Below, in pieces: positions 35,847-41,392 of a stretch of 64,000 nucleotides of DNA. The notes below the pieces were generated by a model. That model saw nothing but the letters and a program-made list of their open reading frames with translations, made no database searches and was not told the DNA's origin. Numbering within the stretch: the stretch's first letter is position 1; each line of letters begins with the position of its first letter. This DNA comes from an uncultured Desulfohalobiaceae bacterium. GTDB taxonomy: Bacteria > Desulfobacterota > Desulfovibrionia > Desulfovibrionales > Desulfothermaceae. Made by a program: the position numbers and the translations under genes. The DNA is taken from assembly GCA_964403955.1 (NCBI GenBank), contig CAYOID010000006.1, positions 3,867 through 67,866 on the forward strand, read 5' to 3'.

Positions 35847-37832
35847 TCAGAACATGTATTCCACTCCAAGCACAAAGCTCCTGCCTGGCATGGGATAGCC
35901 TTTGACATAGGCATAGTCCTTGTCCAGAAGATTGTGGACTTCGCCCCGCAGGCTCAAATCCCCATAGGAGCCAAAATCCAGGATACGCTTTTCAACACTC
36001 AGGTTGGCCACGGTGAAACCGCCTTTCTCAATCACCGGAGCGGGGAAGCCGGATTCAAAATCCTGGATGTCCAGCTCACCGATGTAGGCAAAATTGAGCC
36101 TGGCCGAAAAACCGTCATAGTCTGAGACCATCAGTCCGTAGGACAGGTTCCATTCCGATGTGTACAGGAGATCTTCGTCAGTCTCCTCGTCCTCGAATTC
36201 AGTCAGGTAGGTGAAGTTGAAATAGGGCTTGATCTGCCAGTTCAGGTTCAGCAATGAAGCCACGTCATACGAGAGCTCGCCTTCGAAACCGGACACCGTG
36301 GCCTCGCCTACGTTGTCCCAGGTCTGCACACCGCCTTGACCAGCAACGCTGACAATTTTGTCTTCAAAATCAGTGTAAAAGTAGGTCAAAGAAGAATCGA
36401 AGGCTCCAAAGTACACATCAATGCCTGCTTCATAAGTTTCACTCTTTTCTGGGTCCAGATCCGGGTTGCCCTTAAAGGGCGTACCAAAGCCGCTGACAAA
36501 ATCAGCGGCCAGCTGCTGGGCGCTGGGCATTCTGAATCCCTGCCCATAGTTGGCCCTGAGCTTGATGTTCTCCAGTGGGAGATAGGCCATGCCCAGCTGA
36601 GGACTGAGATCATCGGCATCCTCAGTTCCGCCCTGTCCCTCCTTGACCTCGACTTCAAAATCATCGTAACGAGCCCCGCCGGAGAGGATGAGGCTGTCGT
36701 TCAGAAATCTGGCCTTGCCCAGAAGAAAGAAGGCCGGGTTGTCATACTCTGTTTTGACCGGGTCAAAATCCTGTTCAATGTCATAGTTGAGCCAATCCAC
36801 ACCTGCAGTCAGGCGATAAGGTTCTGGGTTCCAGGTCAACTGTGCCTGAGCTCCCTGATAGTCAGTGTTGTTTTCAAAGGGGATGCCGTCATCCCAAAAA
36901 TCCGGGTTGCTGGCCACTGGATCAACATTCTTGTTGTCGTCCTCACCCACAAAGTACCTGGCTTTCCAGGAGAACAGCCCGTCAGGTGTTGCACCGTCAT
37001 ACATGAAATCAAATGATTCGTTGGACTTGTCTGCGTAGTCGTCCAGGTCGTTCTGGCTCAGGTAGCTGGGCGTTCCAGCTTCATCGACCTCGAACGAGTT
37101 GACGATGACCCCGAGACGATTCTTGGGCAGGAACTCGTAGCCCAGATTCAGACTCACATTCACCTTTTCGTCGTAGCCGGTGTTGGCATACTCATCTCCA
37201 TCTGCCGTGTCGTAATCATCCATGGTGCTTCTGCTCACACTGCCGGAAAAGTCGAAGCCCTCCAGCGCTCCGGAAAAACCGGCCGAGATTTCCTCATGCC
37301 CAAAGCTGCCCAGCTCTCCCTGCACAAAAACCGATGGTTTGCCTTTGCCCTGCCTGGTGATCACATTGACCAGGCCTCCGATGGCAGATGAACCGTACTG
37401 CACGGAAGCCGGTCCGCGAATGATCTCCACCCGCTCTATGTTCTTAGTCATGATCTTGGCCAGATTTCCGGTGCCGATTCTGCGGCCATCGAGCAGGACA
37501 ATGACCTTGCCTTCCAAATCAATACCCATAGCATTGGTGCGAAATCCCCGAATTCCAATGGAGGTCAGGGTGCCCGGGTACTTGTTGACATAACCAATCC
37601 CTTGCTCGGCCAGCAGGTCACCCAAATCCCGCGCCGTTGACATCTTGATTTCCTGTTCCTCCAGAACTGTCACATGTGAGGTCACTTCCCGCTGAAACTC
37701 TTTGACCCGTCCAGCAGTGACCACCACTTCATCCAGTCTCGTGGTCGCATTGCCCGCTTGAGCGTTCATCGTTTGTGGAATGAACAACCCCATTGTCAAG
37801 AGGCAGAAAAGGAAAACACTTCGTTTGGCCAT
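35847..37832 (-). CDS. TonB-dependent outer-membrane receptor (BtuB-like by riboswitch context)
   Basis: ORF track, 661 aa. It has a signal peptide, the TonB box DEVVVTA, a plug domain, and ends ...SFVLGVEYMF. Confidence 0.92.
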   Translation of the reverse strand: MAKRSVFLFCLLTMGLFIPQTMNAQAGNATTRLDEVVVTAGRVKEFQREVTSHVTVLEEQEIKMSTARDLGDLLAEQGIGYVNKYPGTLTSIGIRGFRTNAMGIDLEGKVIVLLDGRRIGTGNLAKIMTKNIERVEIIRGPASVQYGSSAIGGLVNVITRQGKGKPSVFVQGELGSFGHEEISAGFSGALEGFDFSGSVSRSTMDDYDTADGDEYANTGYDEKVNVSLNLGYEFLPKNRLGVIVNSFEVDEAGTPSYLSQNDLDDYADKSNESFDFMYDGATPDGLFSWKARYFVGEDDNKNVDPVASNPDFWDDGIPFENNTDYQGAQAQLTWNPEPYRLTAGVDWLNYDIEQDFDPVKTEYDNPAFFLLGKARFLNDSLILSGGARYDDFEVEVKEGQGGTEDADDLSPQLGMAYLPLENIKLRANYGQGFRMPSAQQLAADFVSGFGTPFKGNPDLDPEKSETYEAGIDVYFGAFDSSLTYFYTDFEDKIVSVAGQGGVQTWDNVGEATVSGFEGELSYDVASLLNLNWQIKPYFNFTYLTEFEDEETDEDLLYTSEWNLSYGLMVSDYDGFSARLNFAYIGELDIQDFESGFPAPVIEKGGFTVANLSVEKRILDFGSYGDLSLRGEVHNLLDKDYAYVKGYPMPGRSFVLGVEYMF

Positions 37833-37964
37833 AACCTTCCTCCTTTCATGTGAAGAGCTTATGGCCCGGGACTTTGCCCGGACCAGCGCCTTTGAGAGCG
37901 ATCCGGGGATGTCCCTTTTTCATCCGCACTGATCATGCCGGGAACTGGTTCCGAGTCCCGGACA

Positions 37965-38130
37965 GACTTTTCTTCAGGCAGGTCTTCTGACTCTCGGATC
38001 GTCCTACTCGCCGCGCCTTCCCATCCGGCTCATGCCGGCAGTGGCTCTTTGCGGCTTTCGTCCCCGATCACAGCGGCGGGCCCGTCCCTGACTTGCACAG
38101 AGTTCCCTTTTCAGCCTGGCTTCGCTTGGT
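37965..38130 (-). promoter_or_regulatory. cobalamin (B12) riboswitch, copy 1
   Basis: The minus strand reads AAAAGGGAACUCUGUGCAAGUCAGGGACGGGCCCGCCGCUGUGAUCGGGGACGAAAGCCGCAAAGAGCCACUGCCGGCAUGAGCCGGAUGGGAAGGCGCGGCGAGUAGGACGAUCCGAGAGUCAGAAGACCUGCCUGAA. The GGGAA, GCCACUG and B12-box AGUCAGAAGACCUGCC elements are all present. Confidence 0.9.
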
Positions 38131-38235
38131 TTTCCTTGTTTCCAGCGAAGCGGGCACCTGAAGAAGCAGTAAGGTGCAGCCCCATGGGTGTGGTGGCATG
38201 AGGCTGCCTTTTTCAAAGAACGTTCATCGTTTTAT

Positions 38236-39141
38236 TTACTTGAAATGCGAAAAAGCCCCCTCGAGGTGGCCGACCCAGATGTCCACGATGTTGTCGAACT
38301 CGGCAGTGCCCTTGAGCACGGCCTCGGTCTCGATGCCTTCCTCGGCCAGGATCGCTGTCCAGGAGTCAGCCTCGTCACCGGCCATGTCGTTGCGCACATG
38401 GTCCCCGGCCACGGACATGAAAGGCATGAGCCAGGCCTTTTGAATGCCCCTGGACTTGAGCTCGGGCAGAATGTCCTCCAGGAGGGGTGCCCCCTCGACA
38501 ACAGCCACATAGACGTTGGGGTCCTTGCGCTGGAACTTGTAGGCCATGGCCTGGTAGAAGGCATTGCTGGGGTGGTGGGTGCCGTGGCCCATGAAAATCA
38601 CCGCCTCGTCAGCCTTGCGTTCCTCCGGGATGTTCTCCAGCATGGCCTCTCGGACCGCTTCCAGGTCATGGGAGGCAGCCAGGAGGGGGTAGCCCACCAG
38701 GATCTTGTCAAACCCGCCGGACATGGACTCGAACCCGTTGACCAGGGACATGAGGTCGTGGAACTCGGCCCCGCCGATGGTGTGCAGGGACTGAACCGCC
38801 ACATGGGTGAAGTCCTCATCCATCATCCTGGCCAGGGCCATGGCTGGCGAATCGAGGTCTTTGCCCTCTTTGGCCAGCTTGTGGCGGATGATCTTCGAAG
38901 TGTACCCCCAACGGACCGGAACCTCGGGAAAGGCCTTCCTGACTTCAGCCTCGATGTTCTCGAACGAGGCCTGGGCCTGGGGATAGCTGGACCCGAATGC
39001 CACCAGGAGGATACCCTTCTTGACCTCCTTCTTGTGCCCATGCCCGTGCCCGTGCCCATGCTCTCCGGCCCATCCCGAGCTGGCCAGCATGAGACTCACC
39101 ACAAACACAAACAGCATCTGCCTCAAGGACTTCAATTTCAT
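38236..39141 (-). CDS. cbiK: CbiK-type cobaltochelatase with signal peptide and (HG)n tract (periplasmic CbiK)
   Basis: Start is set at MKLKSLRQMLFVFVVSLMLASSGWAGEHGHGHGHGHKKE (RBS GGAGG). The motifs VIFMGHGTHHPSN...LMPFMSVAGDHVRNDMAGDEADSW fit CbiK. Confidence 0.85.
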   Translation of the reverse strand: MKLKSLRQMLFVFVVSLMLASSGWAGEHGHGHGHGHKKEVKKGILLVAFGSSYPQAQASFENIEAEVRKAFPEVPVRWGYTSKIIRHKLAKEGKDLDSPAMALARMMDEDFTHVAVQSLHTIGGAEFHDLMSLVNGFESMSGGFDKILVGYPLLAASHDLEAVREAMLENIPEERKADEAVIFMGHGTHHPSNAFYQAMAYKFQRKDPNVYVAVVEGAPLLEDILPELKSRGIQKAWLMPFMSVAGDHVRNDMAGDEADSWTAILAEEGIETEAVLKGTAEFDNIVDIWVGHLEGAFSHFK

Positions 39142-39173
39142 ACTTTTTTCCTCCACTTTTTTGAAAATATGGT

Positions 39174-39698
39174 TTATCCAGAGCTGCCCAACTTTCTCAA
39201 ATCGTACGACTTCCCCTGTCCCATGCTGATGGAGATGCGGTCCCCCTCATCCGACACAGTGGTCGTACCCAGGAGCTCCCGCATCGTCTCGCCATCCCAG
39301 AACCGGATCCAGTTGGGGAACTCGTCCCTCTTGTCGGAGTCCAGGATGTCTCCCACCTGGACCTTGCTCACCAGGCCCATGGAGTGCTGTGTTGACCCGG
39401 CTTTCAAGGTCAGATGGTAGTAGGAGAATGAATTGAAGAGGAGCTTGCCTTGCATCACCACCTCCCTGTTTGAGATGCAGCTGCCCAGAATGAAACGCAG
39501 CCGCATGAATTCAGAATCCAGTATCCAGCGCAGCCTCTGGCTGCGCTGGGTAGAGAACTCAATGCCAACACACTTCACGACAAACTGATGACCGGGGATA
39601 TTGTATTGATCCCTTTTTGATCGACGCCGCCCTTGCCCAGCCTCTGCTGCAGCGTTTTCTGCATCTTCAGGTTGACCCTGTTCCTGCACCACCGGCAC
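39174..39698 (-). CDS. hypothetical protein, distal part of a riboswitch-controlled ORF pair (possibly one frameshifted gene)
   Basis: ORF track, 174 aa, with a GTG start sitting on a G6 run. This frame opens only 8 codons upstream. There is no recognisable family, though RRRSKR...ISNRE is faintly PilZ-like. Confidence 0.45.
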   Translation of the reverse strand: MPVVQEQGQPEDAENAAAEAGQGRRRSKRDQYNIPGHQFVVKCVGIEFSTQRSQRLRWILDSEFMRLRFILGSCISNREVVMQGKLLFNSFSYYHLTLKAGSTQHSMGLVSKVQVGDILDSDKRDEFPNWIRFWDGETMRELLGTTTVSDEGDRISISMGQGKSYDLRKLGSSG

Positions 39699-39910
39699 CC
39701 CCCATGATCGAAATAGATATGGTCATGGACCTTTTGAAAGCTGAGATCCAGCCCGTTTCGGGGATGGACGTCGCCGTGTGTCCGCTGTCGGCACATGGCG
39801 TAGGACTCGACGCAGGCCGCCATCCACTCGTCCAGATCCTGGTGATCAGTAAAAAGACAACTCAAAGGTTCAGACCTGCTCAACCGCCATAAGTCCGTCT
39901 TCTGTCCCAT
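39575..39910 (-). CDS. hypothetical protein, proximal ORF directly behind riboswitch copy 2
   Basis: Internal ATG (RBS AGGAGG) gives MGQKTDLWRLSRSEPLSCLFTDHQDLDEWMAACVESYAMCRQRTHGD... It overlaps the next ORF by 124 nt in another frame. Confidence 0.5.
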   Translation of the reverse strand: MGQKTDLWRLSRSEPLSCLFTDHQDLDEWMAACVESYAMCRQRTHGDVHPRNGLDLSFQKVHDHIYFDHGGCRWCRNRVNLKMQKTLQQRLGKGGVDQKGINTISPVISLS

Positions 39911-39952
39911 GGAGCGCCTCCTGGGGATGCTGGCTGCATGTTTCGAAAAGCC

Positions 39953-39993
39953 CAAAAAAAATCCCCGGATCGAAGCAACTTCGATCCGGGGAT
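39953..39993 (-). terminator. intrinsic terminator of riboswitch copy 2 expression platform
   Basis: The minus strand reads AUCCCCGGAUCGAAG-UUGC-UUCGAUCCGGGGAU followed by U8. Confidence 0.8.
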
Positions 39994-40054
39994 GTCCCTT
40001 TTTTATCCACCGAAACCGGTCGGGCTCGTCTCCTGACCCGAAAGCGAGCGCCAA

Positions 40055-40215
40055 TTCTTCATTCAGGCAGGTCTTCTGACTCTCGGATCATCCTACTCGC
40101 CGCGCCTTCCCATCCGGCTCATGCCGGCAGTGGCTCCTTGCGGCTTTCGTCCCCGATCACAGCGGCGGGCCCGTCCCTGACTTGCACAGGGTTCCCTTTT
40201 CAGCCTTCACCGTCA
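40055..40215 (-). promoter_or_regulatory. cobalamin (B12) riboswitch, copy 2
   Basis: It has the same aptamer as copy 1, with 3 substitutions over ~145 nt (40062-40205 versus 37973-38116). GCCACUG and AGUCAGAAGACCUGCC are present. Confidence 0.9.
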
Positions 40216-40282
40216 GCAATGCTGGATTTACCAAGCATCCCATATCATTGGTGAAGTGCAACCCGAATGATCTTTTTCAAAT

Positions 40283-40312
40283 GATTTACATCTAAAATGA
40301 ACTCATGTCAAA
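40283..40312 (-). promoter_or_regulatory. candidate sigma70-type promoter for riboswitch copy 2
   Basis: The minus strand has TTGACA (40307-40312), an 18-nt spacer, and TAAATC (40283-40288). It is AT-rich and abuts the recombinase stop codon. Confidence 0.4.
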
Positions 40313-40882
40313 CTATCCTGCTCCAAGGCCAAGGTAGAGTTGGATCGCCATGGTGTCCTGGCTGTTGGCCAACTTGTACCCGCAGGCATGCCTTAATTGG
40401 TGCGGGTGGACCGGAAAGTCAAAGCCCGCCTTCTCTCCCGCTTTTCTCACAATCTTCTGCAGCGCCGAGACCTTGAGCGGCGCGTTTCTTTCCGAAGAAA
40501 ACACGAACTGGCTGTCAGGCAGCTCCCGAAAGAGCTTGCGCACAGCCCGAATTTCCTGACCTCTCAGGGGGTGAGTGCTGGGTACACCGATCTTGAGCCT
40601 GCTCACGTGGAGCAGGCCTCGGTCAAGGTCGAGCTGGGAGCGGCGCAGGCCTGCAGCCTTCCCCGCCCCCAGGCCGTGTGTGTACATCATCAATAATATG
40701 GTCCGATCACGGTGCCTTTGGCGCCCCACCTTCTCCGCAGTCTCGATAAGCAGCTTGGCCTCTTTCTGGGTCAGGTAGTCCCTGGGCCTGACCTGGCCGT
40801 TTTGAGGCCTTCCATACACTTTACGCTTTTCGAGTACTGACCTTCCTTGCTCACCTGATCTGGCCTCCCGGCTTGTCTGCAT
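40313..40882 (-). pseudogene. degenerate FimB/XerC-type tyrosine recombinase (C-terminally truncated)
   Basis: ORF track, 189 aa. HQLRHACGYKLAN is present, but the ORF ends IQLYLGLGAG before the catalytic Tyr region. The first catalytic Arg position reads HGLGAGK instead of HGLRxSE. Confidence 0.65.
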
Positions 40883-41180: not shown

Positions 41181-41256
41181 CTGGTGCCGAGGGACAGAAT
41201 TGAACTGCCGACACGGGGATTTTCAGTCCCCTGCTCTACCGACTGAGCTACCTCGG
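41181..41256 (-). tRNA. tRNA-Phe (GAA)
   Basis: The reverse complement is GCCGAGGTAGCTCAGTCGGTAGAGCAGGGGACTGAAAATCCCCGTGTCGGCAGTTCAATTCTGTCCCTCGGCACCA, 76 nt. It folds as a cloverleaf with anticodon loop CUGAAAA. Confidence 0.95.
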
Positions 41257-41392
41257 CGCAAACAAAAAATCTGTCTACTAAAAAGAAGCTCAAAATGCAA
41301 GGTTCTCTGGGACACTTTTTTACAAAAGTCGTCTCCGGTGTCTTTTTGGGTATGGATTGCTTTGTCGACAAGGCTCTGGCATAGCAAGGCTG

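Follow-up and report, generated by a model that had tools for sequence, protein, structure and literature searches.

The window analysed here, meaning the whole stretch of 64,000 nt, belongs to the genome of an uncultured Desulfohalobiaceae bacterium (GCA_964403955.1, contig CAYOID010000006.1, positions 3,867-67,866 of the forward strand), a 192-contig MAG. The minus strand carries, in this order, a cobalamin riboswitch (RS2), orfA, orfB, cbiK, a second cobalamin riboswitch (RS1) and the operon of a TonB-dependent receptor; both riboswitches are complete (Table 1). The receptor gene is the first of a receptor-DUF2162-ExbB-like-DUF2149-BtuF/CbiZ-CobN line, and its homologs are called ‘vitamin B12 transporter’ by several sources. 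The homologs of orfA, with 82% and 72% amino-acid identity in metagenomes and ~ 40% in genus g7, always lay between a cobalamin riboswitch and cbiK in the loci that we compared. Those of orfB (77% and 84% amino-acid identity) were situated between orfA and cbiK in L116/L117, and orfB was absent from the L118, L029 and C53 paralog loci. We also observed a tyrosine-recombinase fragment and a tRNA-Phe just upstream of the locus.

Upstream of RS2 we noted a candidate promoter, which the consensus scan missed because its second hexamer has no final T. Between cbiK and RS1, neither the consensus scan nor inspection of the sequence revealed a convincing sigma-70 promoter. This intergenic region contains a GC-rich hairpin, at which the terminator scan called no minus-strand terminator. 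The par, L118, L136 and L037 loci also have hairpins at the equivalent place.

Table 1. Features of the two-riboswitch locus in minus-strand order, with positions in the window.
Feature	Position	Strand	Description and basis
Candidate RS2 promoter	40283..40311	-	TTGACA (40311-40306), 17-nt spacer, TAAATC (40288-40283); putative, read from the sequence
RS2, upstream cobalamin riboswitch aptamer	40049..40270	-	Leader of orfA-orfB-cbiK; RF00174 hit 40229-40049, 92.1 bits; P1/P2 by folding
Probable conversion tract in RS2, maximal extent	40091..40206	-	15 consecutive informative sites of receptor-leader type
Conserved platform block of RS2	39982..40008	-	GGAU-AAAAAAGGGAC-AUCC hairpin that continues into the terminator's 5′ arm; repeat search
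RS2 intrinsic terminator	39953..39993	-	15-bp stem (39993-39961, 9 G-C pairs), 3-nt loop, U8; terminator scan, inverted repeat, MFE fold
orfA	39575..39913	-	112-aa Cys/His-rich protein; ORF list; no Pfam family
orfB	39174..39455	-	~ 93 aa from ATG after GGGAGG; ORF list; no Pfam family; gene callers start further upstream
cbiK	38236..39156	-	Cobaltochelatase with signal peptide and (HG)n tract; PF06180, E = 1e-70
GC-rich hairpin between cbiK stop codon and RS1	38176..38207	-	Read from the sequence; no clean U-tract
RS1, downstream cobalamin riboswitch aptamer	37960..38176	-	Leader of the TonB-dependent receptor operon; RF00174, 105.9 bits
Probable donor segment in RS1	38002..38117	-	Same alignment columns as the tract
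Conserved platform block of RS1	37899..37925	-	Repeat search, alignment
H3, stem homologous to the terminator stem	37877..37907	-	CCCGGAUCGC...GCGCUGGUCCGGG; MFE fold, RNAalifold of 6 receptor leaders
H4, alternative hairpin	37863..37884	-	GGUCCGGG-CAAAGU-CCCGGGCC; predicted, -14.7 kcal/mol; kept in 6/6 receptor leaders
H5, sequestor hairpin	37827..37866	-	GGCCAUAA...UUAUGGCC; predicted, MFE and centroid folds, -18.2 kcal/mol
TonB-dependent receptor	35847..37832	-	Pfam Plug and beta-barrel domains

In cmscan, RS1 and RS2 each matched positions 1-189 of the Rfam model RF00174, for which the gathering score is 31.5 bits. The B12 box (GCCACUG motif), GAGCCACUGCC, was present in both, and the conserved junction core aligned with high posterior probability. 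The closing helix P1 of RS1 is formed by CUUCUUCAGGU and ACCUG-CCU-GAAGAA according to cmscan. The cmscan alignment of RS2 contained mismatches in P1, and we considered whether RS2 might be degenerating, its P1 disrupted. This was rejected: folding of the truncated leader with RNAfold placed P1 45 nt further upstream, where UCAUUCGGGU (40270-40261) pairs with ACCU-GCCU-GAAUGA, followed by a long P2. The same P1/P2 sequences recur in the cbiK leader on contig C53. For the kissing-loop partner of L5, inspection by eye and folding gave two candidates, both with GGG: one is the conserved AAAAAGGGAC loop, the other the loop of the linker hairpin, CGGGU. The surrounding genes are B12-related, with cbiK (PF06180) following RS2 and the TonB-dependent receptor, BtuF/CbiZ and CobN following RS1. 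As reported by Rodionov et al. (2004, PMC545781), B12-elements precede btuB in E. coli, and in Desulfovibrio they precede cbiK-cbiL/btuCDF. Both aptamers resemble the RF00174 B12-element in their full match to the model, in the B12 box and in their place before B12 transport or cobalt-chelatase genes. The aptamers themselves are no different from it; what is unusual is that one gene line has two nearly identical copies, together with the possibly derived platform of RS1.

The sequence-only reading had described the two aptamers as direct repeats of ~ 98% identity, ~ 2.1 kb apart. The repeat search and an exact alignment gave the same picture: segments 37973-38117 and 40062-40206, 145 nt long and 2089 nt apart, were 98% identical, with three mismatches (38001/40090, 38048/40137 and 38101/40190) at the positions already named in that reading. 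A second shared block, of 27 nt and 96% identity, was likewise recovered by the repeat search at the two platform blocks (Table 1). Between the blocks the sequence is unrelated, as had been claimed; neither there nor outside them do the leaders align, and 26-28 of 47 linker positions are different. The longest exact run that RS1 and RS2 have in common is at most 53 nt. Other riboswitch cores of the same genome differed from RS1 and RS2 at 13-30 of ~ 141-145 aligned positions, compared with three between the pair.

One explanation of this near-identity is a recent segmental duplication, in which the orfA-orfB-cbiK cassette was inserted before the receptor operon and brought a new copy of the receptor leader with it, much as the sequence-only reading had proposed. 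The 98% identity of the cores as a direct repeat agrees with such an event, as do the recombinase fragment and the tRNA-Phe upstream. Nevertheless, comparison of the loci indicates that the riboswitch-(orfA-orfB)-cbiK-riboswitch-TonB receptor layout is old and predates this genome. A second such module, riboswitch-cbiK-riboswitch-receptor, is present in the same genome on contigs C53 and C174, with ~ 83% nucleotide identity. Riboswitches flank cbiK in L037/G014 and L069. In L116/L117, the closest sequenced relative (~ 88-95% nucleotide identity), we found riboswitch-orfA-orfB-cbiK as well as cbiK-riboswitch-receptor; L118 contains riboswitch-orfA-cbiK-riboswitch-receptor, and L136 contains cbiK-riboswitch-receptor. 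Moreover, the P1/P2, linker, terminator and downstream genes of RS2 are orthologous to those of L116 (88-91% nucleotide identity), that is, to the flanks of a cbiK leader. RS1 and RS2 are homologous only in the core and in the family-wide 27-nt block, whereas the homology of a duplicated segment would continue into the flanks. Since the layout is old in the paralog and the relatives, a recent cassette insertion is not a likely cause of the near-identity, and we consider it highly improbable. The 778-nt orfA-orfB segment was also examined as an insertion specific to the window and rejected, as orfA/orfB occupy the equivalent place in L116/L117, L118, L029 and L014; their absence from the C53 paralog is most likely due to loss.

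The RS2 leader is composed of parts with different affinities. In the core, RS2 differed from RS1 at 3 of 143 positions and from L117_D at 2 of 143, and from its own positional ortholog, L116_U, at 13 of 143. In the linker, by contrast, RS2 differed from the cbiK-leader orthologs at only 5-6 of 53 positions, to be compared with the 28 of 47 that separate it from RS1. Fifteen informative sites in a row (40206-40091) were of the receptor-leader type, whereas nearly all others, including those downstream of 40090, were of the cbiK-leader type; a run of this length was reached in 0 of 200,000 shuffles. The tree of the core placed RS2 with RS1 and L117_D, and an AU test rejected RS2 with the cbiK-leader clade (p = 0.002). 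The tree of the 3′ flank placed RS2 with L116_U (support 92/98), and here the AU test rejected RS2 with RS1 and L117_D (p = 7e-5), the clades of both AU tests having been named after the alignments had been seen. These mosaic sites, the shuffles, the AU tests and the unconverted L116_U argue for gene conversion, which the sequence-only reading had offered as its alternative. In our interpretation, the core of RS1 was very probably copied over that of RS2 by non-reciprocal homologous recombination within an old layout.

The direction of copying follows from the variable hairpin adjoining the B12 box. In RS2 this hairpin is GCCGGCAUGAGCCGG, as in RS1 and L117_D, which is the receptor-leader type, whereas the cbiK leaders L116_U, par_U and L118_U have CGGGAA(A/U)AUCCUG; the hairpin of the cbiK-leader type is CGGGAAAAUCCUG. 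In consequence, RS1 appears as the donor and RS2 as the recipient. About 12 sites in the hairpin differ between the two types, and RS2 has the receptor type at all of them.

The same sites bear on the view that nothing was copied and that purifying selection alone keeps the cobalamin aptamers of the family near-invariant. The 5′ half of the core is indeed 85-98% identical even between genera, and across all riboswitches of the genome there is little or no difference in the last 28 nt of the repeat or in the 27-nt block. Selection of this kind, however, does not account for a variable hairpin in which RS2 follows the receptor leader at every type-differing site, nor for the 13 of 143 differences from L116_U, nor for the rejection of the positional tree on the core by the AU tests. 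In the paralogous module, the two cores differ at 19-22 positions and by a 49-nt indel. More broadly, in the paralog and in related Desulfohalobiaceae loci the two cores differ at 7-22 of ~ 143 aligned positions, and it is by their place in the locus that the leader flanks cluster. Selection without copying is therefore extremely improbable as the explanation.

Gene conversion, as the preferred reading, can be bounded by the alignments. The tract would comprise at least 24 and at most ~ 116 nt: strictly type-specific sites set a minimal tract at ~ 40115-40138, only ~ 24 nt long, and 116 nt is no more than an upper bound, since the family shows almost no variation in the 5′ part of the core. 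The P1/P2, linker and terminator of RS2 appear untouched, with their cbiK-leader flanks kept. The remaining ~ 28-29 nt of the 145-nt repeat, like the 27-nt block, are alike only through near-invariance among the riboswitches of this genome. The block hardly varies among the four cbiK/receptor leaders and can be recognised in 7/7 riboswitch leaders of the genome, and we rejected it as part of the copying event on that ground. Judging from L116_U, the ortholog of RS2 in L116/L117, which is unconverted, the conversion would postdate the split from that relative.

We must also note that the mosaic of RS2 was read from one assembly. The 100% match of an independent Logan contig, L140, is limited to 40008-38815 and ends short of the aptamer. 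The run SRR7048219 contains an orfA-cbiK contig of 100% identity. The near-identity could then be an assembly chimera, in which the sequence of RS1 or of a strain variant was threaded through RS2. The genome is a MAG in 192 contigs, and at C174/C53 the assembly breaks at a riboswitch of the same family that has an exact run of 55-58 nt in common with RS1; at 38048/40137, moreover, RS2 has the base of the relative L117_D. The exact runs between RS1 and RS2, however, never exceed 53 nt, and the break at the 55-58-nt repeat suggests that k was 55. The receptor-specific site 40115 and the cbiK-leader-specific site 40090 are 25 nt apart, so that k-mers of at least 31 across the 3′ junction must exist in the reads, and the variants of RS2’s own are interleaved with its unique flanks. 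A chimera is accordingly very improbable. We assign a similarly small probability to an external origin of the tract, by ectopic recombination of imported receptor-leader DNA from a related strain into RS2. In the tract, L117_D (2/143) is no more distant from RS2 than the RS1 of the same genome (3/143). The two tract positions at which RS1 and RS2 disagree, 38101 and 38048, are substitutions private to RS1, which fits divergence after an intragenomic copy, and it is simpler to assume a donor on the same molecule, 2.1 kb away.

The sequence-only reading had also suggested that the two copies may use different expression platforms, transcriptional and translational, and at the sequence level this is supported: RS2 has a canonical terminator, and RS1 has no U-tract and a conserved predicted hairpin over the Shine-Dalgarno sequence (SD) and the AUG. 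The clean terminator claimed for RS2 was found again, as a stem followed by a T-run (Table 1). The platform block was present in 7/7 riboswitches of the genome and in relatives, and its C17 copy covaries (GGGU/ACCC). The conserved GGAU...AUCC hairpin of this block is in competition with the lowest pairs of the terminator stem. With B12 bound, the genes after RS2 would be predicted to be off by intrinsic termination.

RS1 had been described as a copy with no obvious terminator, in agreement with the terminator scan, which listed nothing between 37960 and 37832. Its stem H3 is followed by CAAAGUCCCGGG and has no U-tract. In the more distant receptor leaders L030_D and L069_D, the U-tract terminator is still there. 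Further downstream, H5 encloses the SD (GGAGG, 37843-37839) and pairs with the start codon (37832-37830) in the MFE and centroid structures as well as in the alifold structure of six leaders. All 8 outer pairs of H5 were kept in 5-6 of the 6 sequences. Two of these pairs show G-C to G-U changes, and an inner pair was changed on both sides; this covariation was drawn from six close relatives, in which only 2 pairs changed on both sides. On these predicted structures, control of the receptor by RS1 is probably translational. H4 overlaps both neighbours, having its 5′ arm in common with H3 and 4 nt in common with H5, and forms in folded truncated transcripts when the 5′ arm of H3 is blocked.

These folds are consistent with a relay. 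Formation of H3 would leave the next segment free to close H5 over the receptor SD and AUG; with the 5′ arm of H3 held elsewhere, the 3′ arm would form H4, and H5 would lose four G-C pairs. The predicted outcome is that, as for RS2, the genes are off when B12 is bound. When the H3 arm was blocked in the window sequence, H5 was still favoured by 7.6 kcal/mol, and an inner SD hairpin persisted in every state. It is quite possible, if slightly short of probable, that RS1 has a derived platform of this kind, H3 being the former terminator stem that serves as a relay after the loss of its U-tract. Two pattern scans of metagenome contigs for receptor-type platforms and the copied hairpin found none. 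Compared with known expression platforms, RS2 has the classical stem and U-tract and RS1 a predicted hairpin over the SD and AUG; RS1 differs in keeping the ancestral terminator stem without a U-tract, apparently coupled to the sequestor via H4.

Tandem riboswitches consist of two aptamers or switches in one 5′ UTR with no intervening gene, such as the tandem glycine aptamers or the SAM and AdoCbl pair of Bacillus clausii metE. RS1 and RS2 are likewise two sensors on one transcription line, and read-through into RS1, if it occurs, would subject the receptor operon to two B12 checkpoints. They are parted, however, by 2.1 kb and three genes (orfA, orfB, cbiK), and each has its own platform and downstream genes, which sets the pair apart from tandem riboswitches. 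Another parallel is offered by the bacterial paralogs that undergo concerted evolution by gene conversion, such as the rRNA operons and tufA/tufB. As in those cases, we see a short non-reciprocal copy between dispersed repeats and a mosaic of locus-type and position-type sites; the unit converted in RS2, by contrast, is a cis-regulatory RNA sensor. Our full-text literature searches found no paper describing gene conversion or concerted evolution of riboswitches, and riboswitch paralogs are usually taken to evolve independently after duplication.

A wider reading is that the riboswitches flanking cbiK have been converted repeatedly within their loci in Desulfohalobiaceae, so that the two checkpoints stay matched in ligand response while their platforms diverge, one a terminator and the other a relay to an SD/AUG sequestor. 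In L118, on this reading, the same hairpin would have been copied in the direction opposite to that from RS1 to RS2 in the window. In L069, a long idiosyncratic insert is common to both riboswitch copies (~ 92%). We put this forward tentatively and regard it as rather doubtful. If true, it would provide a documented concerted evolution of a riboswitch pair and an intermediate between transcriptional and translational control.

The locus offers a case with sharp boundaries, for which an unconverted ortholog serves as control: a sensor core was very probably overwritten by its neighbour, and the decision-making parts were spared. Near-identical riboswitches thus call for caution when a recent insertion of a gene cassette is to be deduced from them. 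The 98%-identical direct repeats are possibly also a substrate for loss of the 2.1-kb cbiK segment by recombination. The receptor leader lends itself to testing how a transcription terminator might become a translational switch. As an instance of paired RNA sensors held alike, the case is clean but modest, and it suggests that an aptamer and its expression platform can have separate histories.

Repeat search found two stretches common to the leaders, a direct repeat of 145 nt (98% identity) and a block of 27 nt (96% identity), beyond which the leaders do not align. Each copy of the repeat lies within an RF00174 match (cmscan), and both aptamers are ordinary members of that family. The near-identical cobalamin riboswitch pair and the second short block noticed in the sequence-only reading were thereby borne out. 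The upstream riboswitch (RS2) is the leader of orfA-orfB-cbiK, and the downstream one (RS1) is that of a TonB-dependent receptor operon. The three mismatches in the repeat fall at 38001/40090, 38048/40137 and 38101/40190. A 21-nt stretch just 5′ of both riboswitches (76% identity) reads GAUG...UUUGAAAAAG on the minus strand; the RS2 stretch takes in the candidate −10 box together with the start site, and the RS1 one is perhaps a promoter copy that has decayed.

Features of the two-riboswitch locus (window coordinates)
Feature	Position	Strand	Description
Direct repeat	37973-38117 / 40062-40206		145 nt
Second block	37899-37925 / 39982-40008		27 nt
Upstream stretch	38208-38228 / 40272-40292		21 nt
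RS1	38176-37960	minus	RF00174 cobalamin riboswitch, 105.9 bits
RS2	40229-40049	minus	RF00174 cobalamin riboswitch, 92.1 bits
Candidate RS2 promoter	40311-40283	minus	TTGACA-N17-TAAATC, read by eye; absent from promoter scan list
RS2 P1	40270-40261		UCAUUCGGGU, pairs with ACCU-GCCU-GAAUGA
RS2 terminator	39993-39953	minus	15-bp stem + U8
Maximal D-like tract in RS2	40206-40091		116 nt
Strictly type-specific part	~40138-40115		B12-box flank and variable hairpin, ~12 differences
H3	37907-37877		Terminator stem of RS1
H4	37884-37863		−14.7 kcal/mol
H5	37866-37827		−18.2 kcal/mol
GC-rich hairpin	38207-38176		Between cbiK and RS1
orfA, orfB	39174-39913		112 aa (Cys/His-rich), ~93 aa
Integrase fragment and tRNA-Phe	40313-40882 and 41182-41257		189-aa fragment, between tRNA-Phe and RS2 promoter

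On the minus strand, tRNA-Leu and tRNA-Phe are followed by a tyrosine-recombinase fragment, RS2 with its terminator, orfA, orfB, cbiK (PF06180, with a signal peptide), RS1 and the receptor line, i.e. the TonB-dependent receptor, DUF2162, an ExbB-like protein, DUF2149, a BtuF-CbiZ fusion and CobN. The recombinase fragment, of the Phage_integrase family, has a 57%-identical copy on contig C2 of the same genome. Neither orfA nor orfB matches a Pfam family; their homologues occur in a few metagenomes (72-84% aa identity), always between a cobalamin riboswitch and cbiK. Since relatives carry both, orfA only or neither, orfA and orfB are distinct small genes under B12 control and not a single frameshifted one.

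B12-elements 5′ of cbiK in Deltaproteobacteria were reported by Rodionov et al. 2004 (PMC545781). The genome contains six full RF00174 matches and a seventh split over the ends of contigs C174 and C53. A second riboswitch-cbiK-riboswitch-TonB receptor module, with ~83% nt identity to that of the window and without the orfA-orfB segment, occupies C53:1-1480 and the whole of C174; its downstream riboswitch has a 49-nt extra hairpin and is divided by the contig break. The loci closest to ours in public data come from Desulfohalobiaceae MAGs. Among related loci, the order is RS-cbiK-RS in L037/G014 and in L069, RS-cbiK-receptor-RS-receptor in G022, RS-orfA-cbiK-RS-receptor in L118 and cbiK-RS-receptor-...-CobN in L136, while the closest sequenced relative lineage has RS-orfA-orfB-cbiK on L116 and orfB-cbiK-RS-receptor-DUF2162-ExbB on its partner contig L117. 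A cbiK with its own riboswitch, then a second riboswitch 5′ of the receptor, is thus a recurring Desulfohalobiaceae design. Recent insertion of an orfX-cbiK cassette with its own leader copy, proposed earlier as one possible source of the pair, is therefore not supported, as the layout is old and recurs, in the same or similar form, in the paralog and relatives. Nor is the pair a strictly tandem riboswitch, since three genes separate the copies. Upstream of its riboswitch, L116 differs from the window and carries an NrdD fragment, cbiA and btuCDF-like genes. In L137/L138 (4676-4927), where the receptor is 75% identical, an 83-aa ORF (MKTGVIVYVTG...) stands 5′ of the receptor and 3′ of cbiK in place of the downstream riboswitch; by eye, this ORF resembles the first one 3′ of the riboswitch on contig C17 of the window's genome. 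The sister species G001 (same genus) has a cbiK 96% identical to ours, followed by a different gene from that in the window; no TonB receptor ortholog was found there at E ≤ 1e-100.

We aligned four leaders from upstream of cbiK (U: RS2, L116_U, par_U of the paralogous module on C53, L118_U) with four from upstream of the receptor (D: RS1, L117_D, par_D on C53/C174, L118_D). Flanking sequence follows leader position: RS2 has 5-6 linker differences in 53 positions to the other U leaders, against 27-28 in 47-49 to each D leader, and 1 difference in 39 to L116_U over the 40-50 columns after the block. In the core, however, RS2 differs at only 3/143 positions from RS1 and 2/143 from L117_D, versus 13/143 from its own ortholog L116_U, and within the paralogous module, 19-22 positions and a 49-nt indel set the two cores apart. 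At the 84 informative sites, where the U and D references disagree, RS2 is D-like at 15 consecutive ones, which delimit the maximal tract, and U-like at nearly all from 40090 downstream and at most of those upstream; none of 200,000 shuffles matched this run. The core ML tree places RS2 with RS1 and L117_D, whereas the 3′-flank tree places it with L116_U (support 92/98), the D leaders forming a 100/100 clade. With groups named post hoc on alignments already seen, AU tests reject RS2 with the other U leaders in the core (p = 0.002) and RS2 with RS1 and L117_D in the 3′ flank (p = 7e-5). The RS2 core thus bears the signature of a gene-conversion tract. Of the earlier suggestion of recent duplication or gene conversion, the run and the AU tests uphold the latter, and cassette insertion falls away. 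Recombination between the direct repeats, also raised in that reading, might delete the 2.1-kb segment.

Because some boundary sites vary within one leader type (e.g. GGAUGAUCC occurs in both U and D), strictly type-specific sites cover only a small part of the tract. The copied hairpin, GCCGGCAUGAGCCGG, is present in RS1 and L117_D, and CGGGAA(A/U)AUCCUG takes its place in L116_U, par_U and L118_U, all of them U leaders, so the direction is RS1 to RS2. As L116_U is unconverted, the conversion is younger than the split from L116/L117 (88-95% nt identity to the window). The two RS1/RS2 differences within the tract (38101, 38048) are private to RS1, and the third mismatch is the first position-type site beyond it. 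The other 28 nt of the repeat (GAUCCGAGAGUCAGAAGACCUGCCUGAA) do not vary among the genome's seven riboswitches, apart from single substitutions in C93, the copy that diverges most; the 27-nt block, which can be recognised in 7/7, is near-invariant across the four cbiK/receptor leaders. Judged by this distribution, both are conserved, not copied.

A mosaic RS2 might instead be an assembly artefact, against which the evidence is indirect. The longest exact run common to RS1 and RS2 is at most 53 nt, whereas the assembly breaks at C174/C53, where another riboswitch has an exact 55-58-nt run in common with RS1, suggesting k = 55. At the 3′ junction, the receptor-specific site 40115 lies only 25 nt from the cbiK-leader-specific site 40090, and k-mers over the junction must therefore derive from reads. 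The two-riboswitch layout is independently backed by L116 and L117. A Logan contig (SRR7048219; present in 4 samples) matches the window at 100% identity over 40008-38815 and ends before the aptamer.

Among bacterial paralogs, rRNA operons and tuf genes are well-known examples of gene conversion; full-text literature searches returned no report of it for riboswitches. Two further loci are suggestive of recurrence. L118_D bears the U-type hairpin of its own locus, with a block of U-like calls over it, and differs from L118_U at 7/143 positions, versus 15/143 plus the 49-nt indel from its positional ortholog par_D. In L069, both copies have a long idiosyncratic insert (~92% identity; ~86% in the rest of the core, counted by eye).

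The two copies probably use different expression platforms on one aptamer, as the sequence-only reading had proposed. RS2, with its terminator, is probably a classical transcriptional off-switch. Its folding gave P1 and a long P2, correcting the cmscan placement of both helices, which was wrong. A common scheme (aptamer, linker hairpin, GGAU-AAAAAGGGAC-AUCC, terminator) underlies the genome's seven leaders and those of relatives. The near-invariant element GGAU-AAAAAGGGAC-AUCC-CCGGAUCG follows every cobalamin aptamer of the genome and occurs also in related genera; its GGAU...AUCC stem competes with the terminator base. In the C17 copy, GGAU/AUCC is changed to GGGU/ACCC together with the terminator 3′ arm, so both competing pairings of AUCC are kept. 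The element is a candidate kissing-loop partner or antiterminator.

In RS1 and its five closest relatives (L117_D, L136_D, L139_D, par_D, L118_D), the terminator stem H3 is retained and the U-tract is absent; the more distant receptor leaders L030_D and L069_D still have it. H4, formed by the H3 3′ arm and the next segment, is possible in all six. H5 encloses the ribosome-binding site (SD) and pairs the AUG, and four of its G-C pairs overlap with the H4 segment. Eight outer H5 pairs are retained in 5-6 of the six sequences, two of them as G-U in place of G-C in leaders whose second codon is GUU instead of GCC. H3 with H5 is the MFE, centroid and RNAalifold structure. These hairpins could constitute a kinetic relay, a reading that we would stop just short of calling probable: with B12 bound, H3 would form, H5 close and translation be off; without B12, H4 would form, weakening H5 and turning translation on. 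Predicted folding of transcripts cut before the SD, which yields H3 unless its 5′ arm is blocked, in which case H4 forms, supports the relay incompletely. With the arm blocked, H5 is still favoured by 7.6 kcal/mol in the full-length window sequence, the H4 and H5 states are near-equal in energy in par_D and L136_D, and the inner SD hairpin persists in every state. Rho-dependent termination or mere attenuation would be the alternatives to the relay.

Between cbiK and RS1, scans and reading found neither a minus-strand terminator nor a convincing promoter, only a GC-rich hairpin with counterparts in relatives; transcription may therefore read through into RS1. The pair belongs to a known kind of element, though with an evolutionary twist; given such read-through, the receptor operon would have two B12 checkpoints in series.
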